Assembly (NCBI GenBank): GCA_020060625.1
Contig: JAGUZU010000087.1
Coordinates: forward strand, 8,500 to 72,499
DNA length: 64,000 bases
Direction of reading: 5' to 3'
DNA from: Anaerolineales bacterium
GTDB lineage: Bacteria; Chloroflexota; Anaerolineae; Anaerolineales; Villigracilaceae
The translations under genes and the position numbers were made by a program. Below the pieces are notes generated by a model, which saw nothing but the letters and a program-made list of their open reading frames with translations, had not been told where the DNA came from and did no database searches. Numbering within the stretch: position 1 is the stretch's first letter; every line of letters starts with the position of its first letter. This document shows positions 16,859-38,698 of the stretch, piece after piece.

Positions 16859-16861
16859 CCC

Positions 16862-16903
16862 ATCCGTAATCCAAAATCGTAAATCTGAAATCGAAAATCC
16901 TAC
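16862..16903 (+). repeat. Heptamer array (ATCnnnA) x6 forming the whole glyQS leader
   Basis: atccgta atccaaa atcgtaa atctgaa atcgaaa atcctac then ATG. Exactly 42 nt, no Shine-Dalgarno motif. Confidence 0.75.
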
Positions 16904-19900: not shown

Positions 19901-19981
19901 GAGAACCGGCTTGGCTTGTTGCAGCGCATCGCCGCGCTCGCAAGCGGCATTGCCGACCTGAGCAAACTCGAAGGGTTCTAA
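16904..19981 (+). CDS. glyQS: Glycine--tRNA ligase, fused alpha and beta subunits
   Basis: N-terminal GlyQ ([17 protein letters not shown]...YFQQMGG...) through about residue 290, a linker, then GlyS ([13 protein letters not shown] ... [10 protein letters not shown] ... [11 protein letters not shown] ...). Single 1025-aa ORF. Confidence 0.92.
17786..17848 (+). repeat. 63-nt heptamer array (9 x 7 nt = 21 codons) forming the GlyQ-GlyS linker
   Basis: ggaatag tgaatag tgaattg ggcaagg catccct tcctatt ccccatt ccccatt acctttc. Left units (GAATnGT) and right units (CCnATTC) are roughly complementary. Confidence 0.65.
18743..18805 (+). repeat. 63-nt heptamer array (9 x 7 nt) in frame inside the GlyS part
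   Basis: gttcaaa gttcaaa gtcgaag gttgcag gttcgtc tgacctt caatttt caacctt caacctt. Encodes [21 protein letters not shown] between the conserved QRYFP and LPNFI motifs. Confidence 0.65.
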
Positions 19982-23849: not shown

Positions 23850-24212
23850 GTGTACATGTTATTGGAATACCTTGCCATTGCGGTGATGATCGCAACAGCC
23901 ACCTTGATCGCCTTTATCGCCATTGGACTGGGGGAATTATTCGGACCAAAGAAAAAATCTGCAACAAAAGACATGCCATACGAATCAGGCATGAACCCCT
24001 ACGGTGAAGGAACGCGCCGTATGCCTGTGCGCTTCTACCTGGTCGCCGTGTTGTTCATCCTTTTCGATATTGAAGTCGTATTCTTTCTGCCGTGGGCAAT
24101 CGCGTTCCGTCAGTTGAAGATATTCGGCTTGATCGAAATGATCGTGTTTATTGTTGTCCTGCTTATCGGTTATGTGTACGCATGGAAGAAGGGAGCGCTC
24201 GAATGGGAGTAG
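23850..24212 (+). CDS. nuoA: NADH-quinone oxidoreductase subunit A
   Basis: Three-TM small protein with YESGM and [12 protein letters not shown] motifs. Start GTG 23850 or ATG 23856 after GAGG. Confidence 0.88.
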
Positions 24213-24691
24213 AGCAGAAACTCGGAAATATGGGCGTGGTCACCACCACGCTGGAAAACATGGTCAACTGGTCGCGCACAAATGCGATGTGGCCCATGCT
24301 GTTCGGGCTTGCCTGCTGCGCCATCGAGATGATGTCGGCGCAGGCGCCGCATTATGACATGAGCCGCTTTGGCATGGAGTTGATGCGCGCCAGCCCGCGC
24401 CAGTCTGATTTGATGATCGTGGCGGGACGCGTCTCCAAGAAGATGGGACCCGTCCTGCGCCGTTTGTACGACCAGATGCCCGAGCCCAAGTGGGTAATCG
24501 CCATGGGCGACTGCGCCTCGTGCGGCGGCGTGTTCAATAACTATGCCATTTATCAGGGCGTGGATGAAGTTGTGCCGGTGGATGTGTACGTGGCGGGCTG
24601 CCCGCCGCGTCCCGAAGCGTTGATCCATGGCGTGCTGACCGTCCACGAAAAGGTGAAGGCGCAAAAGCTCAAGGATTTGGCAAAAAGTTAA
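24203..24691 (+). CDS. nuoB: NADH-quinone oxidoreductase subunit B
   Basis: Cluster N2 cysteines [30 protein letters not shown] 24203 overlaps nuoA by 10 nt (listed ORF starts at 24092). Confidence 0.92.
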
Positions 24692-24692
24692 T

Positions 24693-24781
24693 GTCGCTGT
24701 GGGGAGGGGGATCGTCCCGGCGAAGCAACCTTCATGTCACAAAGGAGATTGCCTCGCGGCGCGAGGCGCGCTCGCAATGAC
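24693..24781. repeat. Hairpin repeat, 'GTCATTGCGAG ... GGAGATTGCTTCG ... CTCGCAATGAC' family, in the nuoB-nuoC spacer
   Basis: Right half AGGAGATTGCCTCGCGG...GCGCTCGCAATGAC matches copies at 46437-46466 and 48538-48577. Left half degenerate. Confidence 0.6.
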
Positions 24782-24793
24782 AGGGTATAGATT

Positions 24794-25306
24794 ATGGATA
24801 AAAAACTCGAACCAATCGTAAAAACGATGCAGGAAAAATTCAGCGCGGCGCATGAAGAATTCCGCGGTGAAGTGCATGTGTTCGTCAACCCCGAACAGAT
24901 CGTGGATGCGCTGACCGTTCTGCGCGATGAATACAAATTCGAACTACTCTCGGCGTTGACGGCGGTGGATTATTATCCGCAGACCTCGCCGCGCTTTCAC
25001 GTCGTCTACCAGCTCACGTCGCTGGCGAACAATGTGTCGGTGCAGGTGAGGGTCCCGGTCGATGGAGACAGCCCAAAAGTCCCGACAGCGGCGCGCGTGT
25101 ATGCGACGGCGAACTGGCGCGAGCGCGAACTCCTCGACATGTTCGGCATCGAATTCGAGGGTCATCCCGATCCGCGCCGCATCCTCATGCCGGAGGAGAC
25201 CGAAGGACATCCGCTGCGAAAGGATTTTCCGCTTGGGTATGAAGAGCCGCAGTTTACGTTCAACTTTGAAGAGATCGATTTGCGCAAGCCGTACGTAAAG
25301 GAATAA
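24794..25306 (+). CDS. nuoC: NADH-quinone oxidoreductase subunit C
   Basis: 30-kDa subunit motifs ANWRERELLDMFGIEFEGHPDPRRIL. Separate from nuoD. Confidence 0.9.
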   Translation: MDKKLEPIVKTMQEKFSAAHEEFRGEVHVFVNPEQIVDALTVLRDEYKFELLSALTAVDYYPQTSPRFHVVYQLTSLANNVSVQVRVPVDGDSPKVPTAARVYATANWRERELLDMFGIEFEGHPDPRRILMPEETEGHPLRKDFPLGYEEPQFTFNFEEIDLRKPYVKE

Positions 25307-25308
25307 TC

Positions 25309-26538
25309 ATGGCACAGCTTGAAGAAGTCGGCGTAGAAAAATATAAACACCTGGTTTCGGAACGGGCGCTTACCGGCGAAACCATGCTTTTGAACATGGG
25401 ACCCCAGCATCCATCCACGCACGGTGTTTTGCGCCTGTTGCTGGAACTGGATGGCGAGATCGTCGTCAACTGCATTCCCGATGTCGGGTTCCTGCACACG
25501 GGCATCGAAAAGAACATGGAAGCCAAGACCTACCAAAAGGCTGAAGTGATGACCGACCGCCTCGATTACATGAACCCAATCGGCAACAACCTTGCCTATG
25601 TGATGGCGGTGGAAAAATTGGTGGATGTGGATGTGCCGCCGCGGGCGCAGGCATTGCGTGTGATTCTGACGGAACTCCAGCGCATCGCCTCCCATTTGGT
25701 CTGGCTCGGCACTTCGGGCCTCGACCTCGCTGCGATGTCCATGTTCCTTTATTGTTTCCGCGAGCGCGAGCAGATTTTGGACATTTTCGAGCTGGTCTCC
25801 GGTCAACGCATGATGACGACCTACATCCGCCCTGGCGGTGTCTGGCGCGATGTGCCGGTGGAGTTCGAAAACGCTGTCCGCGACTTTATAAAGATCTTCC
25901 CCAAGCGCGTTGATGAATATGAAAGTCTGTTGACCAAAAACCCGCTTTTTATTGACCGCACAGTTGGCATTGGTATTTTGAGTCGGGAAGTCGCCTTATC
26001 TCACGGGGTGACGGGTCCCATGCTCCGCGCTTCCGGCGTGGATTGGGACTTGCGTAAGGCGCGCCCCTACATGGGGTATGAGCAATACGATTTTAATGTG
26101 CCTGTGCGTCCGGAAGGCGATACGTACGCCAGGTATCTCGTCCGTGTGCGGGAATTGCGCGAGTCGTTGAAGATCGTGGAACAGGCATTAAACAGACTGC
26201 CGATGGGTCCTGTGCGCTCGGAGAATCGAAAAATCGTCCCGCCGCCGCGCTCGGAGATCGGCGTGAGCATGGAGGCGCTGATCCATCACTTCAAGCTGTG
26301 GACGGAGGGTTTCCCTGCCCCCAAAGCATCCGTTTACAGCGCAGTCGAGTCGCCGCGCGGCGAGTTGGGCGTCCTGCTCGAAGGTGATGGCGGGCCCAAA
26401 CCTGTGCGCGTCCACATGCGCACCCCCTCATTTGATAATCTTTCCGTGCTGCCTGAAATCGTCAAGGGGCATTTGGTGGCGGACCTGGTTGCCGTCCTCG
26501 CGTCCACAGACATTGTCCTCGGAGATATTGACCGATGA
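25309..26538 (+). CDS. nuoD: NADH-quinone oxidoreductase subunit D
   Basis: 49-kDa subunit motifs NMGPQHPSTHGVLRL, HTGIEK, RPGG, SPRGELG, IVLGDIDR. Confidence 0.93.
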   Translation: MAQLEEVGVEKYKHLVSERALTGETMLLNMGPQHPSTHGVLRLLLELDGEIVVNCIPDVGFLHTGIEKNMEAKTYQKAEVMTDRLDYMNPIGNNLAYVMAVEKLVDVDVPPRAQALRVILTELQRIASHLVWLGTSGLDLAAMSMFLYCFREREQILDIFELVSGQRMMTTYIRPGGVWRDVPVEFENAVRDFIKIFPKRVDEYESLLTKNPLFIDRTVGIGILSREVALSHGVTGPMLRASGVDWDLRKARPYMGYEQYDFNVPVRPEGDTYARYLVRVRELRESLKIVEQALNRLPMGPVRSENRKIVPPPRSEIGVSMEALIHHFKLWTEGFPAPKASVYSAVESPRGELGVLLEGDGGPKPVRVHMRTPSFDNLSVLPEIVKGHLVADLVAVLASTDIVLGDIDR

Positions 26539-27044
26539 GCCTTGAGAAAAAATATCCGAAGGAAATAAAACAAATCCTTTCCAAATATCCGCCGGAACAT
26601 AAACGCTCGGCGGTCATGCCGCTTTTGTATCTTGCCCAGCGTGAAGAGGGCTATATCACAAAGGAGGCGATGAAGGACATTGCTCATCTGTTGGATATAA
26701 CCGAAACGGATGTTGCCTCCATTGTCGGGTTTTATACGCTCTACCACGATAAGAGGGAAGGCAAGTATCGGATGCAGGTCTGCACCGACCTGCCGTGCGC
26801 CTTGCGAGGCGCGGATGAATTCCTCGAAAACCTGTGCGAAAACCTCGGCATCAAGGTTGGCGAGACGACGGAAGACGGGCTGGTTACGCTGGAATCCGTC
26901 ATGTGCCTGGCAGCGTGTGATCGCGCGCCCATGTTCCAGACGCAGGGACCTGACGGGATCAAGTACCATGAATACATGACGGTGGACCGCACGATGGAAT
27001 TGATCGAAGCATTGAAGAAGGCGGAGTCGGAGGTGGAGAAATGA
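26535..27044 (+). CDS. nuoE: NADH-quinone oxidoreductase subunit E
   Basis: 2Fe-2S motifs VCTDLPCALRG and CLAACDRAP. 4-nt overlap with nuoD. Confidence 0.9.
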   Translation: MSLEKKYPKEIKQILSKYPPEHKRSAVMPLLYLAQREEGYITKEAMKDIAHLLDITETDVASIVGFYTLYHDKREGKYRMQVCTDLPCALRGADEFLENLCENLGIKVGETTEDGLVTLESVMCLAACDRAPMFQTQGPDGIKYHEYMTVDRTMELIEALKKAESEVEK

Positions 27045-28279
27045 CCCACGTCCTTTTACGTCATCGCGATATTCCCGATATCAATACGCTGAATGTTTAC
27101 AAGAAGAACGGCGGTTTTGACGCGTTCAAACGAGCCGTCACTAAAATGAAGCCAACCGAAGTGACGGACGTGGTCAAGAACTCCGGTCTGCGCGGACGCG
27201 GGGGGGCGGGCTTTCCCACTGGCATGAAGTGGGCGTTCATCGACAACAGGAACTGGCCCCATTATGTGGTGGCAAATGCGGATGAGTCCGAGCCGGGCAC
27301 GTTCAAAGACCGCGAGATCATGGAGGGGAATCCCTTTCAATTTTTGGAGGGGGTCGCCATCGCCAGTTACGCCATCGGCGCAAACGTGGCGTACGTCTAT
27401 TTGCGCGGCGAGTTTTGGCAGGTTGCCGCCTTCCTCGATGAAAAGATCGCGGAGATGGAAGAGGCAGGTTATCTCGGGAACAAACTTTTCGGCACAGACT
27501 ACTCGCTGAAAATCTACACCCACCTCGGCGCAGGCGCGTACATCTGCGGCGAAGAAACCGCCCTGCTCGAATCCCTCGAAGGCAAACGCGGACAGCCGCG
27601 CGTGCGTCCGCCCTTCCCGCCCTCGTATGGTCTTTATGGCAAGCCGACTGTCATCAACAACGTGGAAACCCTTGCCAACGTTCCGATGATCCTTGCCAAT
27701 GGCGCGGACTGGTACAAAAGCATGGGAACAGCCGATAGCGCCGGCGTGAAAATCTTCTCGCTTTCGGGGCGCGTGCGCAAACCCGGAAATTATGAGCTGC
27801 CTTTCGGCGCGACTTTCCGCGAGTTGATCTACGAACACGGCATGGGCATTCAGGAGGGCAGGTCAGTCAAAGCCATCATGCCCGCGGGAGCCTCCTCTTC
27901 GCTGATCGTGGTGGACGATAAAGTGCTGGATACTCCGATGGACTATGCCACCGTCCGCACGCTCGGCGCGGACCTCGGATCTGCTTCCGTGATCGTGCTG
28001 GATGACACTGTGGATATTGACTGGGTCGTCAACAAGACCATTCATTTCTTCAAGCACGAGTCCTGCGGCAAATGCACCCCCTGCCGCGAAGGCAATTACT
28101 GGATGCGGCATCTTACGGAACGCATTCATTCAGGCGGCGGCTCGTCAGGCGACGTGGACCTGCTTTTGAACGTCGCCAAACAGATGCAGGGCAAATGTCT
28201 GTGCGCGCTGGGCGAATTCTCCACCATGGCGGTCGTAACCGGCATCGAACGCTTCCCGCAGGATTTCAAGAAGGCATAA
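27041..28279 (+). CDS. nuoF: NADH-quinone oxidoreductase subunit F
   Basis: GLRGRGGAGFPTG, NADESEPGTFKDR, ESCGKCTPCREG. Confidence 0.93.
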   Translation: MTHVLLRHRDIPDINTLNVYKKNGGFDAFKRAVTKMKPTEVTDVVKNSGLRGRGGAGFPTGMKWAFIDNRNWPHYVVANADESEPGTFKDREIMEGNPFQFLEGVAIASYAIGANVAYVYLRGEFWQVAAFLDEKIAEMEEAGYLGNKLFGTDYSLKIYTHLGAGAYICGEETALLESLEGKRGQPRVRPPFPPSYGLYGKPTVINNVETLANVPMILANGADWYKSMGTADSAGVKIFSLSGRVRKPGNYELPFGATFRELIYEHGMGIQEGRSVKAIMPAGASSSLIVVDDKVLDTPMDYATVRTLGADLGSASVIVLDDTVDIDWVVNKTIHFFKHESCGKCTPCREGNYWMRHLTERIHSGGGSSGDVDLLLNVAKQMQGKCLCALGEFSTMAVVTGIERFPQDFKKA

Positions 28280-28281
28280 GA

Positions 28282-28330
28282 CGATATTCGATACCGGATA
28301 TTCGAATATCGAATAACGAGTATCGTTTTT
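28282..28330 (+). repeat. Heptamer array in the nuoF-nuoG spacer
   Basis: cgatatt cgatacc ggatatt cgaatat cgaataa cgagtat cgttttt. Partly self-complementary (GATATTCGAATATC). Confidence 0.75.
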
Positions 28331-28344
28331 TTTTCGGAGACTTA

Positions 28345-30792
28345 ATGAGCAAACAGGTCACAATAACAATCAACGGAACGCAAGTAACCGTACCCGACGG
28401 CACGCTGGTTGTGGACGCGGCAAAGATGGCGGGCATTGATATCCCCGTCTTTTGCCATCACCCCAAATTGGAGCCGGTCGGCATGTGCCGCATGTGCCTG
28501 GTTGAGATCGGCAGACCCATGCTCGACCGCAACACCGGGCAGGTGGTGATGGAAAACGGTCAGCCCAAGATCCAGTTCATGCCCAAACTCGAAACCGCCT
28601 GCACCAACCGCGTTTCGGAAGGCATGGTGGTGATGACCACTTCCGACAAGGCAATGGATGGACAAAAAGGCACGGTTGAGTTCCTGCTCACGTCGCATCC
28701 GCTGGATTGTCCGGTCTGCGACAAGGGCGGCGAATGCCCGCTTCAAAACCTGACCATGCAGTTTGGTCCGGGCAGGAGCCGCTTCATCTACGACGAAAAA
28801 CTGCGTCTCGAAAAACAAGTTCCGCTCGGCGAATTGATCTGGCTCGACCGTGAACGCTGCATCCAATGCGCCCGCTGTATCCGTTTTCAGGATGAAATCG
28901 CCGGGGAAGCCGTTCTCGGCTTCGACGAGCGCGGACGCAACACCCAGATCGTCTCATTATCGGACCCCGGATTTGATTCTGTTTTCTCAGGCAACACCAC
29001 CGACATTTGCCCTGTCGGCGCTTTGACCACGGCAGACTTCCGCTTTGGGGCGCGCCCCTGGGAGTTGAAAGCGCAAGCCTCGATTTGTACGCAGTGCCCT
29101 GTTGGCTGCAACACCACGCTCAACACGCGGCGCGAAGCCAAGGCGGGCGGCGACATTGTAGTGAAACGCGTCATGCCGCGCCAGAACGAGGAAGTGAACG
29201 AGATCTGGCTGTGCGACAAGGGACGCTTTGCCCACCATTATCTGGAGAGCAAAAAACGCCTTACCCGACCCATGATCCGCAAGGACGGCAAACCAACCCG
29301 CGCCTCATGGGATGCCGCAACCAAACTCGCCGCCGACAACTTTGCGAAGGCGAAGAAGGATTTTGTCCTGTTGGCTTCGGGCAGGCTTTCCAATGAAGAC
29401 CTGTTCAACCTCAAGTCGCTGGCGGATACGGCGGGCGGCAAAGCCATCCTGTATTCCGACATGGGCGGCGGCGAATTGACGCAGTTGGTCGGTGTGGGCG
29501 CAGGCACGAATATCGGCGCGATGGGGAAGGGCGATGCCATCCTCGTGATCGCCTCCGACCTGTACGAAGAGGCGCCGATCTGGTGGCTGAGGGTCAAGCA
29601 GGCGGCGGACCGCGGCGCGACGCTGATTGTCGCCAACCCGCGCGAAACAAAACTGGATCGTTTTGCCAGATACACCATCCGTTACGCGTACGGCGATGAG
29701 GTCAAGACCGTTTCAAGTTTCGGCAAGAAAAGCAAAATTTCAGACGAGTTTGCAAAAGCCAAAAATGCGATTGTATTCTTCGGCAGTGAAGGGCTGGGCG
29801 TGAATGGCGTGTCCGCGCTGGCTTCTTCGTGCGCCAGCCTGCTGAAGGAATCGGATCATGTTGGACGCCCCAATAATGGGCTGATCGGCGTGTGGCAGAG
29901 AGCCAACGATCAGGGCGCATTCGAGATCGGTTTCCGCCCGGAAGCCAATCTGGCGAAGGCTTTGAAAGGCAGGGCGGTTTACATTGTGGGCGCTGACCCG
30001 GCGGGCGACAGCCCCGCTTTGGCAAAAGCCCTTGACGGCGCGAAGTTCGTTGCGGTACAGGATATTCTGGAAACCGCTACCACCGAGATTGCGGATGTCG
30101 TCTTTCCGGCGCAGGCGTTTACCGAACGCGAGGGAACGTATGTTTCCGGCGAACGCCGCGTGCAGCGTTTTTACGCTGCCGTGCCTGTGAAAGGCAGCAG
30201 CAAGCCCGACTTTGCGATCACTTCGATGATCGCAAAGCAGATGGGCATTATCCTCGAGGGTACGTCGCCTTCGGTGGTGTTCGACATCCTTGCCAATTCG
30301 ATTGATGCCTTCAATGAGTTGAACTATGAAAGACTCGCCGAAGTGCGCGGACAGTGGCCCATTGTCGGGCGCGGCGACTTGTATTACGGCGGCACGACCT
30401 ATGAAAACACGCAAGGCTTGGGCGTGCAACTCGTCCCGATGGCTCAGGTTATGGGAACGGTACGCATTCCCAAAGTCAGAAAAGAGGCGGCTCTTCGTCC
30501 CAAGGAAAAGGAATTGCTGGCTGTGCCGGTCAATAAATTATACGATCTCGGCGCGACCGTCCGCTCCGCTGAATTGCTCGGCGGGCGTATTGGAGAAGCA
30601 ACCATCTTCCTGCATTCGTCCACTGCGAAGAAGCTGGGTGTGGAAGAAGGCAAGCCTGCGAAAATTTCCTTTGGCGGTGTGAGTGTGGAAGCGGTTGTGA
30701 AGTTCGACGATACGATTTCAACGGGTGTGGCGCTGGCGCCGCGCAGTATGGGCATTCCCATTCGTGAACCTGTTGTCTCAAAGGTGAAGTGA
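28345..30792 (+). CDS. nuoG: NADH-quinone oxidoreductase subunit G
   Basis: MSKQVTITINGTQV start at ATG 28345 after GGAG. Fe-S motifs CHHPKLEPVGMCRMC, HPLDCPVCDKGGEC, CIQCARCIRF, CPVGAL. The listed ORF 28072 start overlaps nuoF. Confidence 0.92.
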   Translation: MSKQVTITINGTQVTVPDGTLVVDAAKMAGIDIPVFCHHPKLEPVGMCRMCLVEIGRPMLDRNTGQVVMENGQPKIQFMPKLETACTNRVSEGMVVMTTSDKAMDGQKGTVEFLLTSHPLDCPVCDKGGECPLQNLTMQFGPGRSRFIYDEKLRLEKQVPLGELIWLDRERCIQCARCIRFQDEIAGEAVLGFDERGRNTQIVSLSDPGFDSVFSGNTTDICPVGALTTADFRFGARPWELKAQASICTQCPVGCNTTLNTRREAKAGGDIVVKRVMPRQNEEVNEIWLCDKGRFAHHYLESKKRLTRPMIRKDGKPTRASWDAATKLAADNFAKAKKDFVLLASGRLSNEDLFNLKSLADTAGGKAILYSDMGGGELTQLVGVGAGTNIGAMGKGDAILVIASDLYEEAPIWWLRVKQAADRGATLIVANPRETKLDRFARYTIRYAYGDEVKTVSSFGKKSKISDEFAKAKNAIVFFGSEGLGVNGVSALASSCASLLKESDHVGRPNNGLIGVWQRANDQGAFEIGFRPEANLAKALKGRAVYIVGADPAGDSPALAKALDGAKFVAVQDILETATTEIADVVFPAQAFTEREGTYVSGERRVQRFYAAVPVKGSSKPDFAITSMIAKQMGIILEGTSPSVVFDILANSIDAFNELNYERLAEVRGQWPIVGRGDLYYGGTTYENTQGLGVQLVPMAQVMGTVRIPKVRKEAALRPKEKELLAVPVNKLYDLGATVRSAELLGGRIGEATIFLHSSTAKKLGVEEGKPAKISFGGVSVEAVVKFDDTISTGVALAPRSMGIPIREPVVSKVK

Positions 30793-30793
30793 T

Positions 30794-31942
30794 ATGGATT
30801 GGACGATCTGGCTTGAATGGTTTCTCAAAGGCTTGATATTATGCCTGCTTCTGCTGACAGGCTTTGCATACCTGACGCTGTATGAACGCCGTGCGCTGGC
30901 GCGCATTCAGATTCGCGTGGGACCGAATCGCGCCGGGCCCCAGGGTCTGCTCCAACCCATTGCGGATGCGATCAAACTGATCTTCAAGGAAGAACTGACC
31001 CCTGCAAAAGTTTATCGGTTTGTCTTCATTCTTGCGCCCGTGCTGACGGTGGTGCCTTCGCTGATCATTGCGGCGGTAATCCCGCTTGGGACATCGTTCA
31101 TGCTGTTTGGGCGCGAAATCACGTTGTACGTTGCGAATTTGAATGTGGGCGTTTTGTACCTGATGTCCATTGCTTCGATTGCGGTGTATGGTATTGTGCT
31201 GGCGGGATGGTCGAGCAATAACAAGTATGCCATGTTGGGCGGCATCCGCTCTTCCGCGCAGATGATCTCGTATGAGATCTCGCTGGGGTTGTGTTTTGCA
31301 ATCGCCATTCTGCTGGGTAATTCGATGAACCTGAACGATCTTGTCGAAGCCCAGAGAAATATATGGTTTGTGGTTGTTCAGCCTGCGGGCGCATTGGTCT
31401 TCATGTTTGTGGTTTTGGCGGAGGTGAATCGCGCGCCGTTCGACATGCCCGAAGCCGAGCAGGAATTGACAGCGGGCTATCACGCCGAATATTCGGGCAT
31501 GAAGTTCGCCCTGTTCTTCATGGCGGAATACCAGAAGATGATTGTGGTCTCGATGATTGGCGCGACGCTGTTCTTCGGCGGATACCGCGAACCCTGGTTT
31601 ATGACGGGATGGTTGAATGGGCTGTTCAGCGTGGATCGGTTCTGGTTCCTGGGACCGGCTTATCTTTTCATCAAGGTCATTCTTCTGCTGTTCTTCATGA
31701 TCTGGATCCGCGCCACCTGGCCCCGCATCCGGTATGACCGCCTGATGGCGCTGGGCTGGAAAATCCTCCTGCCGTTGACGCTGGTCATCGCGTTTATCAC
31801 TGCCACGGGCATTCTGCTCCAGCAGGAGTTGAACAATCCGCTGTTCTATTGGAGTATTCCCATTCTTTCCATTATCTGTTTACTGGCGGCGGTCGCTTTT
31901 ATTTATCGCGACTTGAGGAGAAAATCTCATGGGCGTTTTTGA
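30794..31942 (+). CDS. nuoH: NADH-quinone oxidoreductase subunit H
   Basis: Polytopic membrane protein with [56 protein letters not shown]. Confidence 0.93.
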
Positions 31943-32450
31943 TCCCATTATCGAACTTTCGAGAGGGCTGGGCGAAACGCTTCGTTCGTTCCTGTTCGAG
32001 AAGACCGTAACCTATCAATATCCCGAAGAGAAGCGGCCCGTCCGCCCGCGTTTTCGCGGACGTCACGTGTTGAAGCGTTACGACAATGGCTTGGAAAAGT
32101 GCATCGGATGCTCGCTATGCGCCGCCGCCTGCCCCGCGGATGCGATCTTCGTGGAAGCCTCGGAAAACACCGATGAAAAACGCTTCTCACCCGGAGAGCG
32201 GTATGCCTCCACCTACGAGATCAACATGCTCCGCTGTATCTATTGCGGCTTTTGCGAGGATGCCTGCCCGACGGAGGCGATTGTGCTGGGCGATAACTAC
32301 GAACTATCCTTCACCGACCGCAAACAGGCGATCTACACCAAGGATTTGTTGTTGGAGCCTGTCCCGTCCGAGCAGATGCTCACGCCGCGCAAGGTGGAGC
32401 CGCGCGCGTTCACACGATCCGTGCCGGAGATGAAAGACCCTACGGACTGA
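31929..32450 (+). CDS. nuoI: NADH-quinone oxidoreductase subunit I
   Basis: Two 4Fe-4S ferredoxin motifs [12 protein letters not shown] and [12 protein letters not shown]. Confidence 0.92.
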
Positions 32451-32506
32451 CGATTTACGATTTCAGATTTTCGATTGTTCCGCGCATCGTCAGTCGAAAA
32501 TCGTAA
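32451..32506 (+). repeat. Heptamer array / long imperfect hairpin in the nuoI-nuoJ spacer
   Basis: cgattta cgatttc agatttt cgattgt tccgcgc atcgtca gtcgaaa atcgtaa. ATTTACGATTT pairs perfectly with AAATCGTAAAT. Confidence 0.75.
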
Positions 32507-32516
32507 ATGGAGAAAT

Positions 32517-33041
32517 ATGACCTCTGACTTGATTGTTTTCCTCGTCCTTTCCCTCGTTGCGATTTCCGCCGCATTGGGGATGTTGTTCAGCCGCAATGCG
32601 GTCTATTCGGCGTTGTTCCTGGTGTTGAATTTCGTCACAGTGGCGGTATTCTATCTTTTGCTGGGCGCGCCCTTCATCGCCATGACGCAGGTCACGGTGT
32701 ACGCGGGCGCGATCATGGTGTTGTTTCTCTTCGTCATTATGCTCCTCGGCGCGGAAAACCTCCCGCCTTCCGACGCGCTCCCCTGGCAGAAGCCGCTGGC
32801 GGTGCTGCTCTCCGCCATTCTTGCGGTCGAAGCGATCTATCTCCTGTTCATGAACGCCCGCACAAATATGGCGATTGCCGCCCCTGAAGCCTCGGTTAAC
32901 ACGATGGAAAACCTGCGCGAAATGGCAATGACATTATTCAACCAGTTTCTCCTGCCTTTCGAAGTCACGTCCATATTGTTGCTGGTTGCCATGGTCGGCG
33001 CCATCGTGCTGACCAAACAGGAAAAAGGAGGACGAAGTTAA
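32517..33041 (+). CDS. nuoJ: NADH-quinone oxidoreductase subunit J
   Basis: Five-TM protein with [20 protein letters not shown] 32517 after GGAGA (listed ORF from 32475). Confidence 0.88.
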
Positions 33042-33343
33042 TGGTCCCCGTTGATTATTACATTGCCTTATCCGCGATCCTATTTGTCATCGGCTCGCTC
33101 GGTGTGCTTTCGCGCCGTAACCCGCTCATCATCTTCATGTCCATCGAGTTGATGCTCAATGCGGCGAACCTCGCCTTCGTGGCATTTGCCAGAATGTACG
33201 ATAGTTTCAGCGGACAGATCTTCGTCTTCTTCGTCATCGCGGTTGCGGCGGCAGAGGTGGCGGTGGGGCTTGCGCTGATTGTGGAAATTTTCAAAACCCG
33301 CAAGAACATCAATGTGGATGAGATGAATTCTCTAAAAGGATAA
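33041..33343 (+). CDS. nuoK: NADH-quinone oxidoreductase subunit K
   Basis: 100-aa three-TM protein, [26 protein letters not shown]. Confidence 0.9.
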
Positions 33344-33344
33344 T

Positions 33345-33386
33345 TCGATATTCGATGCTCGATGATCGAATATCGAGTATCGAATT
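33345..33386 (+). repeat. Heptamer array in the nuoK-nuoL spacer
   Basis: tcgatat tcgatgc tcgatga tcgaata tcgagta tcgaatt. The ends AATTCGATATTCGAT / ATCGAATATCGA..ATCGAATT are inverted repeats. Confidence 0.75.
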
Positions 33387-33398
33387 ACGGAGAATGTT

Positions 33399-35546
33399 AT
33401 GCACTTAAGCGAAACAGTACATACGGGCTTTTATTTCCTCGCTCCCTGGCTGGTGCTTGCGCCCGTCACCGGCTTGTTGGTCAACGCCGCGTTCGGGCGT
33501 CGGATGAGCGAAACGCTGATCGGCGCAGTGGCAAGCCTGGCGTCGGGCGCGGCGTTCGTCGTATCCATCCTGCTGGCGTACTCGGTGTCGGTCAATCACG
33601 GGCTGGCGGTCAGCGTGCCGTTCCTCGAATGGATTCACATCGGCAGCCTCGAACTCGACTGGACCTTCCGCGTGGACTCGCTTTCGACCACGATGATGGT
33701 CGCCGTTACAGGCGTGGGAACTCTCATCCACATCTACGCGATTGGATACATGCACGAGGATGTCCGCTTCAAGCATCAGGAAGGACGCTTCGCCCGCTTC
33801 TTCGTCTTCATGAACCTGTTTATCGCTGCGATGATGATCCTCGTCTCGGGCGACTCCTACTTAATGCTTTTCGTCGGCTGGGAAGGCGTGGGACTTTGCT
33901 CCTTCCTCCTCATTGGCTTCTGGTTCGAGATGGATACACTCGCCCGACCCTCCTGGGCAAACTCGGACGCTGCAAAGAAAGCCTTCATCACCAACCGCGT
34001 GGGCGACTTCGGTTTCCTGATCGCGGGCTTTTTGATGTTCTGGTATCTCGGCTCATTCCAATTTGACGAAGTGTTTGCCGCCGCGCCCGCCATTGCGGAA
34101 GCAGCCCCCTGGGTCATCGTGGCGATCACGCTTTTTATGCTTGTCGGCGTTGCCGGTAAATCCGCGCAAATTCCGCTTTATATCTGGCTTCCCGACGCAA
34201 TGGCAGGTCCCACGCCTGTCTCTGCTCTCATCCATGCCGCCACGATGGTGACGGCGGGCGTGTATCTCGTGGCGCGCTCGGCTCCGCTTTACACGCTGGT
34301 TCCCGAAGCGCAATACATCGTGGCGATGGTTGGCGCAGGGACGGCGCTCTTCGCCGCGACGATTGCCGTCGGTCAGTATGACATCAAGAAAGTGCTTGCC
34401 TATTCCACCATCTCACAACTCGGCTTCATGGTTGCCGCGGTTGGGATGGGCGCGTACGTGGCGGGGATGTTCCATCTTGTCACGCACGCCTTCTTCAAGG
34501 CGTTGTTGTTCCTTTCCGCCGGCTCGGTCATCCTCGGGCTCGAGCGCGGACATCATCATCTCGCGCATCATGGTCACGATAAGAAACCACTCAAAGGAAA
34601 AAAGAAAAAAGAAGAGCATGGCGGTCACGACGACCATGGAGAAGTCTTCGACCCCGGCGATATGCGCAACATGGGCGGCATCCGCAAGACCATGCCTGTC
34701 ACGTTCTGGCTGTACATGATCGGCACGCTGGCATTGGCGGGCATTTTCCCGTTCGCGGGTTTCTGGTCGAAGGATGAAATTCTGCTCGATGCCAGCCTGC
34801 ATTACCCCAGCGTTTATTGGCAGTTGACCATCGCCGCCTTCTTCACTGCCTTCTACATGGGACGCCAAATCTGGATGGTCTTCTTCGGCAAGGCACGGAC
34901 AGACGCCGCCAAACATGCGGAAGAAAGCCCAAAGATTATGACCGTGCCGCTTATGGTGCTGGCAGGCTTGAGCGTAGTCGGAGGCGCGTTGAACCTTCCG
35001 TTTGAAGGCTTCCATAACCTGAGTCACTGGCTGGAATATACGCTTGGCGAAGTCCATGCGCTTCCGCTCGATTTGCAGGTTGCGGGCATATCCACCGCGC
35101 TGGCGTTGCTTGCCATTTTTATTTCATGGCTGATCTACGGACGTAATCCGCTCAAGGCTGGTCAGACCGATCCATTGAAGAAGCCGCTTGGTTTCCTGTT
35201 CACAGGCATGGAAAACAAATGGTTCGTGGACGAAGGCTATGGCGTTTTGATCATCACGCCGTTCAAAAAGATTTCGCAGTTCCTGGCGGATGTGATTGAC
35301 TGGCGCTTCTGGCACGACTTTGTGCATGATACGGTCATTGCCGGAACCTATAACTGGATCAGCAATATTGCGCTCGACCGCTATGCCGATCAGCGCGGCA
35401 TTGACGCCTTTGCCAACTGGCTCGGCACGACAACGCAATGGATTTCCAACCATGTGCGTAAAGTCCAAAACGGATTTGTGCGTTCGTACGCGCTTTCCGT
35501 TTTGCTGGGCGTTGTCTTGATTTTGGGTTATTTGATTTTGAAATAA
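33399..35546 (+). CDS. nuoL: NADH-quinone oxidoreductase subunit L (with His/Lys-rich insertion)
   Basis: Antiporter-like subunit with WEGVGLCSFLLIGFW, PDAMAGPTPVSALIHAATMVTAG, KVLAYSTISQLGFM and a long C-terminal lateral helix region. Confidence 0.92.
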   Translation: MHLSETVHTGFYFLAPWLVLAPVTGLLVNAAFGRRMSETLIGAVASLASGAAFVVSILLAYSVSVNHGLAVSVPFLEWIHIGSLELDWTFRVDSLSTTMMVAVTGVGTLIHIYAIGYMHEDVRFKHQEGRFARFFVFMNLFIAAMMILVSGDSYLMLFVGWEGVGLCSFLLIGFWFEMDTLARPSWANSDAAKKAFITNRVGDFGFLIAGFLMFWYLGSFQFDEVFAAAPAIAEAAPWVIVAITLFMLVGVAGKSAQIPLYIWLPDAMAGPTPVSALIHAATMVTAGVYLVARSAPLYTLVPEAQYIVAMVGAGTALFAATIAVGQYDIKKVLAYSTISQLGFMVAAVGMGAYVAGMFHLVTHAFFKALLFLSAGSVILGLERGHHHLAHHGHDKKPLKGKKKKEEHGGHDDHGEVFDPGDMRNMGGIRKTMPVTFWLYMIGTLALAGIFPFAGFWSKDEILLDASLHYPSVYWQLTIAAFFTAFYMGRQIWMVFFGKARTDAAKHAEESPKIMTVPLMVLAGLSVVGGALNLPFEGFHNLSHWLEYTLGEVHALPLDLQVAGISTALALLAIFISWLIYGRNPLKAGQTDPLKKPLGFLFTGMENKWFVDEGYGVLIITPFKKISQFLADVIDWRFWHDFVHDTVIAGTYNWISNIALDRYADQRGIDAFANWLGTTTQWISNHVRKVQNGFVRSYALSVLLGVVLILGYLILK

Positions 35547-35551
35547 AATCT

Positions 35552-35599
35552 CCCTCACCCCACCCCCTTCTCCCACTGGGAAAGGGGCAGGGGTGAGGG
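35552..35599. repeat. Hairpin repeat, 'CCCTCACCCC ... GGGGTGAGGG' family, nuoL-nuoM spacer
   Basis: CCCTCACCCCACCCCCTTCTCCCACTGGGAAAGGGGCAGGGGTGAGGG. Related copy in the next spacer. Confidence 0.7.
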
Positions 35600-35613
35600 C
35601 ACGAGGATAGAAC

Positions 35614-37128
35614 ATGGAATTTCTTTTGCAACCTCTTACACTCCTGACCTTCTTCCCGATCTTGGGCGTGCTTGTGATCCTCTTCATGAATTCCGAAATG
35701 AAGAACGCCATTCGCTGGGTCGCGCTGGTCACATCCCTGCTGACGTTCGGCATTTCGTTGTGGGTCTTCTCGATGTTCAGCGCGTCGAACCCCGACCTGC
35801 AACTGGAAGCCAAATATCCGTGGATCCACGTTGCAGGCTGGAACATTTACTACTACCTCGCCGTGGACGGTCTGAGCGTTCTGCTTGTTCTGCTCACCGC
35901 CTTCCTTACGCCGATCTCCATCCTTTCCACCTGGACTGCTGTGGAAGAGCGCGTGAAGGATTTCATGCTCTTCTTCCTCCTCCTGGAAGTCGGCATGACG
36001 GGCGTGTTCCTGGCGCAGGACTTGTTCCTGTTCTACATTTTTTGGGAATTCACCCTCGTGCCGATGTACTTCCTCATCGGCATCTGGGGCGGACCGCGCC
36101 GCGTGTATGCCGCGATCAAGTTCTTCCTCTACACCATGGCGGGTTCCATTTTGATGCTGCTCGCCATCATCTATCTCGGTATCAAAGCGGACACCTTCAA
36201 TCTGCCCACCATGCTTGTCCGCCTGCCTGACCTATACGCCACAGGCGCGATTACGGCTGGCACACAGATGTTCCTCTTCCTCGCGTTTACCGCCGCTTTT
36301 GCCATCAAGGTCCCAATGTGGCCCCTCCATTCGTGGCTGCCCGATGCTCACGTGGAAGCGCCGACGGCTGGCTCCGTCATCCTTGCGGGCGTCCTGCTGA
36401 AGATGGGAACGTATGGCTTCCTGCGCTTCAATATTCCGCTTTTCCCGAACGCCGCCATCCAAGCCGCCCCATGGATCGCGCTCTTTGCGACCATCGGCAT
36501 TATTTACGGCGCGGCGGTCTCCTTCGCGCAGGCGGATGTAAAGAAACTGGTCGCTTACTCCTCGGTGAGCCACCTCGGTTTCGTTATGCTCGGTCTTTTT
36601 GCGCTCAATGCCGAAGGCGTGGCTGGCGCAATTTTGCAGATGGTCAATCACGGTCTCAGCACGGGAGCGTTGTTCCTTCTCATCGGCATGATCTACGAGC
36701 AGACTCACACCCGCGAGATCAAAGTCTATGGCGGCTTGTGGAAGATCACGCCGATCTTCGGAACCATCATGCTCATCGCCTCGCTCTCCTCGATGGGTTT
36801 GCCCGGTCTTAACGGCTTTGTGGGTGAGTTCACCATCCTGCTTGGCGCGTTTGGCTCGAAAGCCATCGGCAGCCCCTGGTTCGCGGGTATCTCCGCCATC
36901 GGCGTCATCATGGCGGCGATCTACATCCTGTACATGTTCCAAAAGGTTTTCCTCGGTCCCGCAGGCGAAGTGACCCATCACCACGAACTCAAAGACCTCA
37001 ACTGGCGCGAGATTCTCACCGTCGTGCCGCTGGTCATCTTTATGTTCTGGATCGGTTTGTACCCCAAACCCTTCTTCGATATCCTCGCCCCCGCGGTTGA
37101 GAAACTACTTTCTGCATTGCCTTTGTAA
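35614..37128 (+). CDS. nuoM: NADH-quinone oxidoreductase subunit M
   Basis: FYIFWEFTLVPMYFLIG, HSWLPDAHVEAPTAGSVILAGVLLKMG, KKLVAYSSVSHLGF. Confidence 0.92.
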   Translation: MEFLLQPLTLLTFFPILGVLVILFMNSEMKNAIRWVALVTSLLTFGISLWVFSMFSASNPDLQLEAKYPWIHVAGWNIYYYLAVDGLSVLLVLLTAFLTPISILSTWTAVEERVKDFMLFFLLLEVGMTGVFLAQDLFLFYIFWEFTLVPMYFLIGIWGGPRRVYAAIKFFLYTMAGSILMLLAIIYLGIKADTFNLPTMLVRLPDLYATGAITAGTQMFLFLAFTAAFAIKVPMWPLHSWLPDAHVEAPTAGSVILAGVLLKMGTYGFLRFNIPLFPNAAIQAAPWIALFATIGIIYGAAVSFAQADVKKLVAYSSVSHLGFVMLGLFALNAEGVAGAILQMVNHGLSTGALFLLIGMIYEQTHTREIKVYGGLWKITPIFGTIMLIASLSSMGLPGLNGFVGEFTILLGAFGSKAIGSPWFAGISAIGVIMAAIYILYMFQKVFLGPAGEVTHHHELKDLNWREILTVVPLVIFMFWIGLYPKPFFDILAPAVEKLLSALPL

Positions 37129-37134
37129 TTCTTG

Positions 37135-37181
37135 CCCTTGCCCCCAACCCCTCTCCCATTGAGAGGGACAGGGGTGAGGGG
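37135..37181. repeat. Hairpin repeat of the same family, nuoM-nuoN spacer
   Basis: CCCTTGCCCCCAACCCCTCTCCCATTGAGAGGGACAGGGGTGAGGGG. Inner stem CCTCTC/GAGAGG. Confidence 0.7.
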
Positions 37182-37192
37182 ATGGAGCGTTC

Positions 37193-38638
37193 ATGACGCA
37201 GCCTCAATTTACAGATTTTTACACCATTCTTCCATATCTCATCCTCACCGTGTGGGCGTGCCTGCTTTTGCTGGTGGATCTCTTCATTCCGAAAAACCGT
37301 AAAAGTATCACCGCGCTCCTCTCGGCAGTGGGGCTGACGGGCGCGCTGGGATATTCCATCACACAGATCGGTCTCTCCAGCGCGGGTTTCAACCGCATGG
37401 TCTCGCTGGATGGATTCTCCACATTCGCCAACATCCTCCTCCTCATGAGCGGCTTGTTCGGCGTGGCGCTCGCCTATGGTTACACCAAACGCATGGGCAT
37501 TGAACGCGGCGAATTCTATATCCTCCTGCTTTTCAGCGTTTCCGGCATGATGCTCATGGCGCAAGCCAGCGACCTGATTGTCGTCTTCCTCGCGCTCGAA
37601 CTGCTTTCCATTCCGCTTTACGTCCTTTCCGCCATCGCCCGCAAACTCGACTCCGAAGAATCAGGTCTCAAATACTTTTTACTTGGCGCATTCGCCAGCG
37701 GATTTGTGGTGTACGGGACGGCTCTCATCTTCGGCGCGACCGGCTCCACCAACCTTGCCGACATCTTCGCCAAAGCCGCCTCCGGCGAGACCTCGAACCT
37801 GCTCCTCACCATCGGGGCGGCGCTGCTCCTCGTCGGGTTCGGCTTCAAGGTGGCGGCGGTCCCCTTCCACATGTGGACTCCCGACGTTTACCAGGGCGCG
37901 CCGACGGCGGTCACCGCTTTTATGGCAGCGGGCGCAAAGATTGCGGGTTTCGCGGCATTGTTTCGCGTATTCTCCACCGCCTTCCCCGCCCTCGCCGCCG
38001 ATTTCACCGACATCCTCTGGGCGCTCTCCGCCCTGACGATGATTGTAGGCAATCTGATCGCCATCTCGCAGACCAACATCAAACGCATGCTGGCGTACTC
38101 CGCCATTGCCCATGCTGGCTACATCCTTATGGCGTTCGTCCCCTACGGAAACGCGGACGTTGCCCCCGTCGCCATTGCAGCAGGCTTGTTCTACCTTGCC
38201 GCCTACGCCGTGACGAACTTCGGTTCATGGGGTGTTGTGATCGCGCTTGAACAAGCCGAAGGCAGGGGGCTTGAAATTGCGGATTACGCCGGTCTGGCGA
38301 AGAAGCATCCCGCCCTCGCCGCCGCCATGACCGTCTTCATGCTTTCCCTTATCGGCTTCCCCCCAACCATCGGGCTGGTGGGCAAGTTCTACCTCTTCCG
38401 TTCCGCTATTGCGGGCGGTTTCACAGGACTTGCCCTCATCGGCGTGGTTACATCATTGATCTCCGCATTCTACTACTTGCGCGTCGTCGTCAACATGTAC
38501 ATGAAGGAAGGCGATCCTGTTGTCGAACGCGAACCTTTGCTTGGCTTCACAACCGCGGTAATGGCAATCGTCACCGTGGCGCTAAGTTTCGTTCCGCAGT
38601 TCCTATTCCTGCTGGCAGGCACGGCAGTTTTGCGATAG
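37193..38638 (+). CDS. nuoN: NADH-quinone oxidoreductase subunit N
   Basis: FLALELLSIPLY, PFHMWTPDVYQGAPT, KRMLAYSAIAHAGY. Confidence 0.92.
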   Translation: MTQPQFTDFYTILPYLILTVWACLLLLVDLFIPKNRKSITALLSAVGLTGALGYSITQIGLSSAGFNRMVSLDGFSTFANILLLMSGLFGVALAYGYTKRMGIERGEFYILLLFSVSGMMLMAQASDLIVVFLALELLSIPLYVLSAIARKLDSEESGLKYFLLGAFASGFVVYGTALIFGATGSTNLADIFAKAASGETSNLLLTIGAALLLVGFGFKVAAVPFHMWTPDVYQGAPTAVTAFMAAGAKIAGFAALFRVFSTAFPALAADFTDILWALSALTMIVGNLIAISQTNIKRMLAYSAIAHAGYILMAFVPYGNADVAPVAIAAGLFYLAAYAVTNFGSWGVVIALEQAEGRGLEIADYAGLAKKHPALAAAMTVFMLSLIGFPPTIGLVGKFYLFRSAIAGGFTGLALIGVVTSLISAFYYLRVVVNMYMKEGDPVVEREPLLGFTTAVMAIVTVALSFVPQFLFLLAGTAVLR

Positions 38639-38662
38639 CGGAAATAATGCGAAATCAACCAA

Positions 38663-38698
38663 CCCTGAGCGCTCTCGCTGCTCGGGGTTTTTGTTTTA
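38663..38698 (+). terminator. Rho-independent terminator after nuoN
   Basis: CCCTGAGC gctctcgct GCTCGGGG followed by TTTTTGTTTT. Confidence 0.7.

Follow-up and report, generated by a model that had tools for sequence, protein, structure and literature searches.

Why are three spacers of a complex I (nuo) operon filled with degenerate seven-nucleotide tandem repeats, and why do arrays of the same kind stand before the start codons of other genes close by? This question is raised by a 64-kb stretch of DNA from an Anaerolineales bacterium (Chloroflexota), which was analysed whole and is called the window below; loci of relatives used for comparison carry L-numbers (L001 etc.). Bacterial heptanucleotide arrays are a known but poorly understood kind of repeat, with the short tandemly repeated repetitive (STRR) sequences known since 1990 and the TAACTGA repeats since 2015. 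The best explanation overall, to which we give a probability of about 0.5, is that these are clade-wide heptamer arrays of the STRR kind that are seeded locally and that have two forms in gene expression, a hairpin between cistrons and a single-polarity leader that would take the place of a Shine-Dalgarno (SD) sequence.

Pfam, applied to 10 window proteins, together with the genes called on identical public contigs, places nuoA-N at 23856-38638, a fused glyQS gene at 16904-19981 (GlyQ at amino acids 7-283, GlyS at 315-887) and a gene for a PD40 beta-propeller (TolB-like) protein at 50897-51955. A sequence-only reading of the window had named six arrays of period 7, each said to be built from its own word and to end close to an ATG. 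All six are present. Their sequence identity at a lag of 7 nt is 0.57-0.79, against a mean of 0.18-0.24 over lags 4-6 and 9-11, and their GC content is 0.33-0.49, against 0.55 for the window:

28282-28330: nuoF-nuoG array, lag-7 identity 0.64, GC 0.35
32451-32506: nuoI-nuoJ array, lag-7 identity 0.57, GC 0.41
33345-33386: nuoK-nuoL array, lag-7 identity 0.77, GC 0.38
16862-16903: glyQS leader array, lag-7 identity 0.69, GC 0.33
16007-16046: array of the orphan copy of the glyQS leader, lag-7 identity 0.61, GC 0.38
50860-50894: leader array of the PD40/TolB-like gene, lag-7 identity 0.79, GC 0.49

Period 7 was also reported at the array sites by Tandem Repeats Finder. When the window was scanned for segments with at least 20 matches in 28 comparisons, lag 7 gave 8 segments, lag 14 gave 2 and lag 12 gave 1, with none at lags 1-6, 8-11, 13 and 15; with at least 16 matches in 21 comparisons, 7 lag-7 segments were observed against 0.03 in 100 block shuffles. 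The sequence-only reading had named as its refutation a lag-7 signal in intergenic DNA no stronger than that of other lags. Lag 7 far exceeds them all, in the window as well as in the 1.74 Mb of relatives described below, and the arrays are a real and strongly non-random feature of this DNA. A scan of the window at Rfam gathering thresholds found only a tRNA-Gln and no family at the spacers.

Two parts of the original description need qualifying. Homology-supported starts do lie 0-15 nt past all six arrays (28345, 32517, 33399, 16904, 16047 and 50897), but the association with start codons is not exclusive, as arrays are also found within genes, where they are in frame, and immediately past stop codons, and in short spacers geometry alone brings an array close to an ATG. 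Similarly, there are at least six distinct repeat words within the 64 kb and the words mostly differ from array to array, but the 12-mer AAAATCGTAAAT is common to the glyQS leader and the 3' arm of the nuoI-nuoJ array, in identical orientation, and TTCGATATTCGA is common to nuoF-nuoG and nuoK-nuoL.

Folding splits the arrays into two groups: paired arrays of opposite polarity give hairpins, and single-polarity arrays are unstructured (0 to about -6 kcal/mol). The long hairpins anticipated from paired half-arrays were recovered in all three nuo spacers:

28280-28334, + strand: nuoF-nuoG spacer, hairpin ACGATAT TCGATAC CGGATAT / TCGAATA TCGAATA ACGAGTA running from the nuoF stop (TAA 28277-28279), with T9 on its 3' side (28326-28334), then GGAG (28336-28339) and the nuoG ATG at 28345; -17.5 kcal/mol, z -1.7
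32448-32508, + strand: nuoI-nuoJ spacer, 5' arm CGATTTA CGATTTC AGATTTT CGATTGT directly after the nuoI stop (TGA 32448-32450), 3' arm ..TCGAAAATCGTAAAT, then GGAG (32509-32512) and the nuoJ ATG at 32517; -20.7 kcal/mol, z -2.5
33341-33388, + strand: nuoK-nuoL spacer, near-perfect hairpin TTCGATA TTCGATG CTCGATG / ATCGAAT ATCGAGT ATCGAAT that includes the nuoK stop (TAA 33341-33343), then GGAG (33389-33392) and the nuoL ATG at 33399; -24.6 kcal/mol, z -4.7

Homologous nuoF-nuoG arrays occur in L027, L045 and L048 and differ from that of the window by whole units, and at the nuoK-nuoL junction L009 has a shorter version and L008 a different hairpin element. The geometry was measured in 43 periodic nuo spacers of the hairpin type. 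From the stop codon to the beginning of the stem the median distance is 0 nt, with 42 of the 43 between -3 and +6, and from the end of the stem to the next start it is 6 nt (0-19). The start-proximal half is the G-poorer one in 27 of 41 spacers (p 5e-4, for spacers that are not phylogenetically independent). Translational coupling by unmasking would be expected to have this layout, a stem from stop to start whose freed 3' arm tends to be G-poor. For a junction that was originally overlapping and coupled, it is also the form in which added DNA disrupts least, and a role of the hairpin form in translation is only suggested by its geometry.

The second group consists of the arrays in front of glyQS, its orphan copy and the PD40 gene:

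16853-16903, + strand: glyQS -10 box (TATAAT, 16853-16858) and leader, array CCGTAAT CCAAAAT CGTAAAT CTGAAAT CGAAAAT up to the ATG at 16904, no SD; single-polarity and G-poor, minimum free energy 0
15994-16049, + strand: orphan glyQS -10 box, leader and first codons, ACTGA-type array AAACTGA ATACTGA CCACTGG TTACTCA adjoining the ATG at 16047; -2.6 kcal/mol, best alignment with the leader of L089
50860-50896, + strand: leader of the PD40 (TolB-like) gene, GAAACGC AAAACGT AAAACGC GAAACGC AAAGC, beginning immediately 3' of the stop of the upstream gene and ending 2 nt before the ATG at 50897, no SD; -6.3 kcal/mol, z +0.4

All three are forward direct repeats of one polarity with 10-23% G, they end 0, 0 and 2 nt before their ATGs, and GGAG, GAGG and AGGA are absent from all of them. 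In the closer relatives the glyQS leader is made up of TATAAT, a few bases and a single-polarity array of 35-50 nt up to the ATG, with words that include AAATCGN, (A/T)AACTGA and AATCTCC/AATTACC, and more distant relatives have a GGAG-type SD and no array. The two kinds of glyQS leader differ in their SD-like motifs (Fisher p 0.0015) as follows:

Array-type glyQS leaders (n = 31): SD-like motif in 0, mean G 8%
Non-array glyQS leaders (n = 38): SD-like motif in 10, all in the more distant relatives L147-L165, mean G 17%

Since glyQS is the sole glycyl-tRNA synthetase gene seen in the window, the array-type leaders presumably support initiation. The idea of SD-independent translation enhancers, put forward in the sequence-only reading, thus finds comparative support for the single-polarity arrays, where a role in translation is plausible; the effect on translation itself we infer from these comparisons. 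A further property, stop codons in all three frames, was considered for the leader words and rejected: AAATCGT, TAACTGA and CGATTGA have them, but AATTACC and AATCTCC do not.

The glyQS leader has a history of its own in the window. The -10 box, the leader and the first ~20 codons are present twice (15975-16110 and 16841-16975), on either side of a minus-strand segment (16111-16748) that encodes a toxin with a PIN domain (PF13470; 16111-16515) and, upstream of it, has a small open reading frame (ORF; 16515-16748), together a PIN/antitoxin cassette. The two copies have different leader arrays and different N-termini (MPSSFQS and MTQKASFQS), which gives the impression that the cassette insertion brought two alleles together. 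The orphan ACTGA-type allele, which lies across the cassette from the working glyQS, is also found in L089 and others.

How widespread are such arrays? The count covered 1.74 Mb of Anaerolineae DNA, in 139 loci that have nuoI or glyQS at their centre, and, as controls, 0.31 Mb in 18 nuoI loci from outside the Chloroflexi:

Lag 6: 28 arrays in Anaerolineae, 7 in controls
Lag 7: 204 arrays in Anaerolineae, 2 in controls
Lag 8: 36 arrays in Anaerolineae, 2 in controls
Lag 9: 18 arrays in Anaerolineae, 11 in controls
Lag 12: 29 arrays in Anaerolineae, 13 in controls

Some genomes prefer octamers (L015, L019, L023, L033, L041, L044 and L049). At the NuoI loci, intergenic arrays number 55, as against 15 within long open frames, of which a few are miscalled open spacers, and non-coding DNA makes up at most a few tenths of these loci by an open-frame test; the ratio was taken from the NuoI loci only, because the GlyQS loci were chosen on an array-bearing gene. 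As greedy ORF calls gave spurious antisense ORFs in the nuo operon, most array spacers that appear convergent or divergent are artefacts. A nuo junction is either tight, with at most 13 nt, or else periodic and 45-125 nt long. Among these junctions nuoI-nuoJ stands out as a hot spot: the window and L008, L016, L021, L022, L029, L042 and L048 have the word CGATTNA there, and other lineages have other words or octamers. There are hundreds of words overall, and a limited set of them turns up again at sites and in genomes that are unrelated: AATTACC was seen 15 times, AAGGATG 10 times and AAATCGT 9 times.

The last of these words extends well beyond the class. The pattern AATCGTAAATCNNNAATCG was scanned in 185,579 species genomes (596 Gb) and found at at least 120 loci; by our own estimate about 280 matches to its 16 fixed bases are expected by chance, so that the number of matches is uninformative on over-representation, and (AAATCGN)n is informative only through its extension beyond the pattern and its orientation toward starts. 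Among the matches listed, which include Acidobacteriota, Bacteroidota, Verrucomicrobiota, Planctomycetota, Patescibacteria, Armatimonadota, Cyanobacteria, Chloroflexota and others, 110 of 123 arrays reach at least 3.7 copies, and an ORF start lies within 45 nt in the AAATCG sense direction in 43 of the 123 (within 4 nt in 17), against 22 in the antisense direction. Arrays of the leader type thus occur outside the Anaerolineae as well. Among the matches listed (L167-L286), (AAATCGN)n often ends 1-4 nt before a start codon, and in Pyrinomonadaceae it occurs as inverted pairs that give hairpins.

Where, then, do the arrays come from? At nuoI-nuoJ the words follow the end of nuoI: where nuoI ends ...CCGATTGA (CGATTGA), the following units are CGATTTA, CGATTGA and the like; a nuoI end GGATTAG is followed by GAATTAG(N) units, and AGACTGA by GACTAGA units. 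The same holds for a loop of GlyS, where the conserved flank CCN GTN SAA A is itself the first unit, as GTTCAAA two to three times in the window and L096, GTCGAAA in L097 and AATCGAA in L122. In 10 loci with heptamer inserts, the flank (the Val codon and the next four bases, GTNSAAA) agrees with the first unit at 5-7 of 7 positions. Over all 49 insert-bearing GlyS loci the mean match is 2.8 of 7, compared with 2.1 of 7 for permuted pairs, a modest effect because many GlyS inserts are of hairpin families that are not heptameric, and a strong one in the heptamer subset only. Among the GlyS inserts, 42 and 63 nt are recurring lengths, both divisible by 7 and by 3. That the array words often match the adjacent gene end argues for local tandem duplication rather than transposition. 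Local seeding, in which a local 7-mer would be duplicated in tandem and an inverted copy then made, is a well-supported origin.

Such an origin agrees with one of the roles first considered for the arrays, that of slippage-prone DNA, in that the units copy the adjacent gene end, but the arrays are not currently hypervariable. Comparison of array length between strains, proposed at the same time, revealed no indels in any array among six assemblies that are 99.4-99.99% identical to the window and were chosen by their identical NuoI protein, so these are not phase-variable loci, and array length is stable at this degree of divergence. A simple-sequence repeat of the contingency-locus type was rejected, as the units are degenerate and copy number does not change across the six assemblies.

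Over longer distances the nuoI-nuoJ array is conserved. Four-fold degenerate sites of nuoH-K are saturated between the window and ten relatives (41-53% identical), whereas the nuoI-nuoJ spacer has a mean column identity of 80% in seven species, with GATT invariant in the 5' units and AATC in the 3' units; the three positions between these cores vary and often fail to pair. This may reflect selection on the sequence, or else the array may be re-seeded continually from a gene end that is constrained by its coding.

Arrays of this kind are also translated. Four arrays came to light in addition to those of the sequence-only reading, three of them in frame and one an octamer hairpin between genes:

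17776-17847, + strand: GlyQS linker array, a heptamer hairpin, GGGAATA GTGAATA GTGAATT ... TATTCCC CATTCCC CATTACC, in frame in the GlyQ-GlyS linker; -22.1 kcal/mol
18737-18811, + strand: GlyS loop array, AGTTCAA AGTTCAA AGTCGAA GGTTGCA ... ACCTTCA ATTTTCA ACCTTCA; -14.9 kcal/mol, z -2.9
34590-34615, + strand: NuoL loop array, degenerate AAAAGAA, translated into a His/Lys-rich loop of variable length that is absent in non-Chloroflexi NuoL
6901-6951, + strand: octamer hairpin, period ~8, GTAGACAG ATACACAC ... CTGTTTAC TTGTATAC, starting at the stop TAG 6901-6903 and standing before the ATG at 6964; -16.3 kcal/mol, z -3.8, lag-8 identity 0.51

In 30 of 76 relatives the linker of GlyQS has lag-7 periodicity, with a wide variety of words, and in more distant ones it is non-periodic. 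Compared with orthologues whose site is empty (FPVQK-NGKLL), the GlyS loop array is an insertion of 42 nt (6 x 7), and its first unit is the ancestral flank GTTCAAA. Arrays occupy the same NuoL site in L011, L015 and L020. The word family of the 6901-6951 hairpin is that of the octamer nuoI-nuoJ arrays in L015, L019 and L023. The nuoG frame of L033 (7780-7932), L041 (959-1053) and L032 (335-431) also contains long arrays of octamers (AACCGGAA/AACCGAAC and, complementary to them, TTCTCCAG/TTAGCCAG), which add about 30-50 residues; the nuoG of the window is without them.

Taken together, we suggest the following course of events. Seven nucleotides at the end of a gene or beside a loop (such as CGATTGA of nuoI or GTTCAAA of GlyS), often with a stop codon among them, would be duplicated in tandem, possibly by slippage, and an inverted copy of the array may then be added by template switching. 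Selection would retain the products that are tolerated, namely those in intercistronic gaps, in 5' leaders and as frame-keeping inserts in protein linkers and loops. In the first form, G-poor, unstructured arrays of single polarity that run up to the ATG would replace the SD, as before glyQS and the PD40 gene, and act as SD-independent leaders of the TAACTGA kind. In the second form, paired arrays would make a hairpin whose 5' arm starts from the upstream stop codon and whose 3' arm, tending to be G-poor, lies near the next start. On reaching the end of the upstream cistron, a ribosome would have to melt the 5' arm and would so free the 3' (leader) arm. The hairpin may in this way preserve or enforce translational coupling of neighbouring complex I subunits, and it may also protect mRNA ends.

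Several results weigh against this proposal. Many relatives have tight, array-free nuo junctions, which makes the arrays dispensable for complex I, and the in-frame arrays cannot act in initiation, which argues that the generating process comes first and that any function is secondary. The hairpins are not significantly more stable in the sense than in the antisense direction (27 vs 16, p 0.18; 79 vs 83 G-U pairs), so the RNA fold itself bears no mark of selection, and RNAalifold on seven nuoI-nuoJ spacers found 1 compensatory pair in 21, a stem that is conserved and not covarying. The conservation of that spacer could come partly from re-seeding off the coding-constrained gene end. In the three nuo hairpins of the window the SD lies outside the stem, and unmasking is thus less compelling here than in relatives whose 3' arm reaches the start codon. 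Finally, the 13-mer TTCGATATTCGAT occurs at nuoF-nuoG in L027 and L048 and at nuoK-nuoL in the window (TTCGATA is also present in L009), which shows that there is also some spread or convergence; pure local seeding does not explain it.

Much of this would be expected if the arrays were a neutral or mildly selfish by-product of a lineage-specific 7-nt slippage with inverted duplication, from which selection merely removes harmful cases, and if those in the nuo spacers did nothing for expression. We regard this as a serious rival, if a somewhat doubtful one. It accommodates the arrays in frame in GlyQS, NuoL and NuoG and those directly after stop codons, the array-free junctions of many relatives and the lack of both folding asymmetry and covariation, as well as the unrelated hairpin families that are seated at these very junctions and in this GlyS loop. 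It is harder to reconcile with a nuoI-nuoJ word and core positions that are kept across species with saturated synonymous sites, with a whole clade that has replaced the glyQS SD by G-poor arrays of consistent polarity, with the preferential placing of the G-poor arm beside the start codon, and with the same word adjoining start codons in the sense orientation in many phyla.

Could the arrays instead be read by a dedicated factor? They might be multivalent sites for a molecule that recognises one core per 7 nt, such as ribosomal protein S1, a cold-shock-domain protein, another RNA- or DNA-binding protein or an RNA, with the hairpin or leader form being secondary. The GATT/AATC cores of nuoI-nuoJ, invariant at 7-nt spacing in seven species while the three intervening positions vary, are what such a factor would leave behind, and it would suit the limited set of words that recurs at unrelated sites and genomes (AATTACC, AAGGATG, AAATCGT) and the orientation of (AAATCGN)n toward start codons across phyla among the matches listed. 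Partners have indeed been proposed in comparable systems: S1, Csp and CsrA for TAACTGA (PMC4679880) and an unnamed partner in Nostoc (bioRxiv 10.1101/2022.06.06.494920). However, there are hundreds of words, often several per genome, and one factor cannot read them all. The invariant cores coincide with a coding-constrained gene end, a possible reason for their invariance; the matches listed do not show AAATCGT to be commoner than other words; and the candidate proteins are hypothetical. We therefore consider such a factor unlikely.

A bolder extension of our own proposal, which we think improbable, is that the leader words form a cross-phylum signal for SD-independent initiation: AAATCGN, TAACTGA and a few others would be read by a conserved component of translation, and Anaerolineae would have added a stop-anchored "anti-leader" arm, making the hairpin a dedicated coupling device for operons such as nuo and more than slippage DNA that is tolerated.

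Insertion of small mobile elements, similar to transposable elements of the miniature inverted-repeat type (MITEs), repetitive extragenic palindromic (REP) sequences and their inverted doublets (REPINs), or Rickettsia palindromic elements (RPEs), by a transposase encoded elsewhere is very unlikely. The patchy presence and absence at the same junctions, the in-frame protein inserts that recall RPEs, the identical TTCGATATTCGAT at two junctions and the two leader alleles (AATCG type and ACTGA type) common to several species would fit it. Against it, there is no conserved element sequence and there are no terminal inverted repeats distinct from the array; comparison of filled and empty GlyS loop sites found neither a target-site duplication nor a conserved element end; the first unit is flanking gene sequence, and the word changes with the local codons; and orthologous arrays differ in steps of about 7.

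The remaining alternative, that the hairpins act on the transcript as partial terminators or as RNase processing or stability elements which set the mRNA levels of nuoA-F, G-I, J-K and L-N, is a poor candidate, for although the hairpins sit exactly between cistrons, T9 follows the one at nuoF-nuoG (with T-rich tracts likewise in L027, L045 and L048) and such a role was proposed for the hupS-hupL STRR hairpins (PMC2670836), the stems are A/T-rich and interrupted, a T-run accompanies only one of the three, sense-strand folding has no overall advantage, and single-polarity and in-frame arrays are left without an account. A simple terminator scan called none of the three spacer hairpins on the nuo (+) strand; its sole hit at the nuo spacers is on the opposite strand (33376-33345), and it did call the operon-end terminator at 38661-38689. 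The nuoF-nuoG hairpin with T9 was accordingly rejected as an intrinsic terminator.

The arrays belong to a known kind, that of STRR or heptameric simple-sequence repeats, here in an Anaerolineales (Chloroflexota) genome. To our knowledge, the canonical STRR words are not among the consensus words of these arrays. The kinship with STRRs that the sequence-only reading had suspected holds for structure: degenerate 7-nt tandem units, several words per genome, a mostly non-coding location and complementary adjacent arrays that form an intercistronic hairpin. It does not extend to taxonomy, since STRRs are a feature of filamentous or heterocystous cyanobacteria and both the host and its relatives are Anaerolineae; here, moreover, the words are others, some relatives use 8-nt units, stop-to-start stems stand at dozens of nuo junctions, arrays lie in frame in GlyQS and NuoL, and units are traceable to a gene end. 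In filamentous cyanobacteria, STRR heptamers form a hairpin between hupS and hupL for which transcript stability or translational coupling has been proposed (PMC2670836).

The sequence-only reading knew of no equivalent start-codon-associated family described for this kind of genome, but an equivalent family has been described. Besides the STRRs between cistrons, TAACTGA repeats end just before start codons without a ribosome-binding site (RBS) in Beggiatoaceae, Cyanobacteria and Bacteroidetes (MacGregor 2015, PMC4679880), and heptamers lie close to the starts of recF and recO in Nostoc PCC 7120 (bioRxiv 10.1101/2022.06.06.494920). The single-polarity arrays resemble TAACTGA repeats as forward heptamers that end 0-3 nt before the ATG, have no canonical RBS and precede essential genes. 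The orphan glyQS leader has AAACTGA/ATACTGA units and no exact TAACTGA, which does occur in relatives (L097, L108 and L125). In contrast, the working leaders of the window, those of glyQS and the PD40 gene, use AAATCGN and AAACGCN, the leader-type array in the operon is paired with its complement, and Chloroflexota are not among the reported taxa. A literature search found no relevant report of heptamer repeats in Chloroflexi or Anaerolineae, with subscription journals mostly outside its coverage.

Heptameric simple-sequence repeats are over-represented across bacteria, with GGGAATC in Xanthomonas and GGGGAYT in Nostoc (PMC4692102). They share with our arrays the dominance of period 7, a mostly intergenic position near gene ends, inverted pairs (in Xanthomonas) and a proposed origin by slippage, but their words are G-rich and quadruplex-forming in Xanthomonas and Nostoc, whereas those found here are A/T-rich or G-poor and fill the whole intercistronic spacer.

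Palindromic repeats are more distant parallels. REPs are a conserved family with hundreds of near-identical copies that are spread by a REP-associated tyrosine transposase (RAYT). Like the REPs, bacterial interspersed mosaic elements (BIMEs) and REPINs of Enterobacteria and Pseudomonas, which are imperfect intercistronic or 3' palindromes able to stabilise the upstream mRNA, the arrays may work in a similar way; unlike them they have no conserved family sequence, their stems are made of phased 7-mers and their words follow the local flank. Assignment to REP/BIME/REPIN was rejected for the 64-kb window, where words differ between sites and only short strings are shared. RPEs, for their part, are conserved mobile families of 100-150 nt. 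They resemble the GlyQS linker, GlyS loop and NuoL arrays as palindromic DNA in frame in genes that is tolerated as surface peptides, and the 42-nt GlyS insert and the periodic GlyQS linker do keep the frame; the resemblance is functional only, as the inserts here are 15-130 nt long, periodic and flank-seeded. MITEs and RPEs were likewise rejected, with no defined ends or target-site duplication at the GlyS loop and the flank itself as the first unit.

Other repeats share the neighbourhood. Hairpins of another family, G/C-rich and reading ccctcacccc...ggggtgaggg, lie in the nuoL-nuoM and nuoM-nuoN spacers (35547-35613 and 37129-37192), with -39.4 and -33.8 kcal/mol and z -4.8 and -3.1; this family is also translated (PSPSGRGVRGEG-like) in the GlyS loop of L102, L108, L118 and L128. 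A third family (gtcattgcgag...gagattgcttcg...ctcgcaatgac) is found in the nuoB-nuoC spacer (24692-24793) and in intergenic DNA at 46380-46469 and 48347-48774, and it fills the nuoK-nuoL junction of L008 (11431-11478), where the window has a heptamer array. A weak heptamer-like stretch with a CGA-type word (GAAACGA ATATCGA AACGATT GAAAATA) lies at 13488-13520, inside ORF 13084-13557. Near a TIR-domain gene (14710-15825, PF13676), a fragment of a TIR N-terminus (KRPLKVFLCHAHADRDAVRALYTRL-like) occurs four times between genes (about 12960-13083, 13840-13965, 14640-14709 and 15860-15925); these look like decayed or modular starts of TIR genes. As to the host, the closest NuoI relatives are Anaerolineales metagenome-assembled genomes, among them Candidatus Villigracilis, and window positions 21929-42450 are 99.99% identical to contig QZJJ01000035.1 (GCA_003599285.1).

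The arrays also have a practical consequence for annotation. Open frames cross the nuoF-nuoG and nuoI-nuoJ spacers (28072-28344 and 32475-32516, in ORFs 28072..30792 and 32475..33041), and in public annotations of the same locus the nuoG start has been placed in three different ways (L001, L002 and homology); heptamer arrays thus mislead the calling of genes and start codons at nuoG and nuoJ.

What the Anaerolineae offer is a comparative set in which the same junctions occur with and without arrays and the same junction carries many words, an essential glyQS has had its SD replaced clade-wide, arrays lie inside conserved proteins and units are traceable to the end of the neighbouring gene. Two questions are thereby made testable: how heptamer arrays arise, and whether they act in translation.

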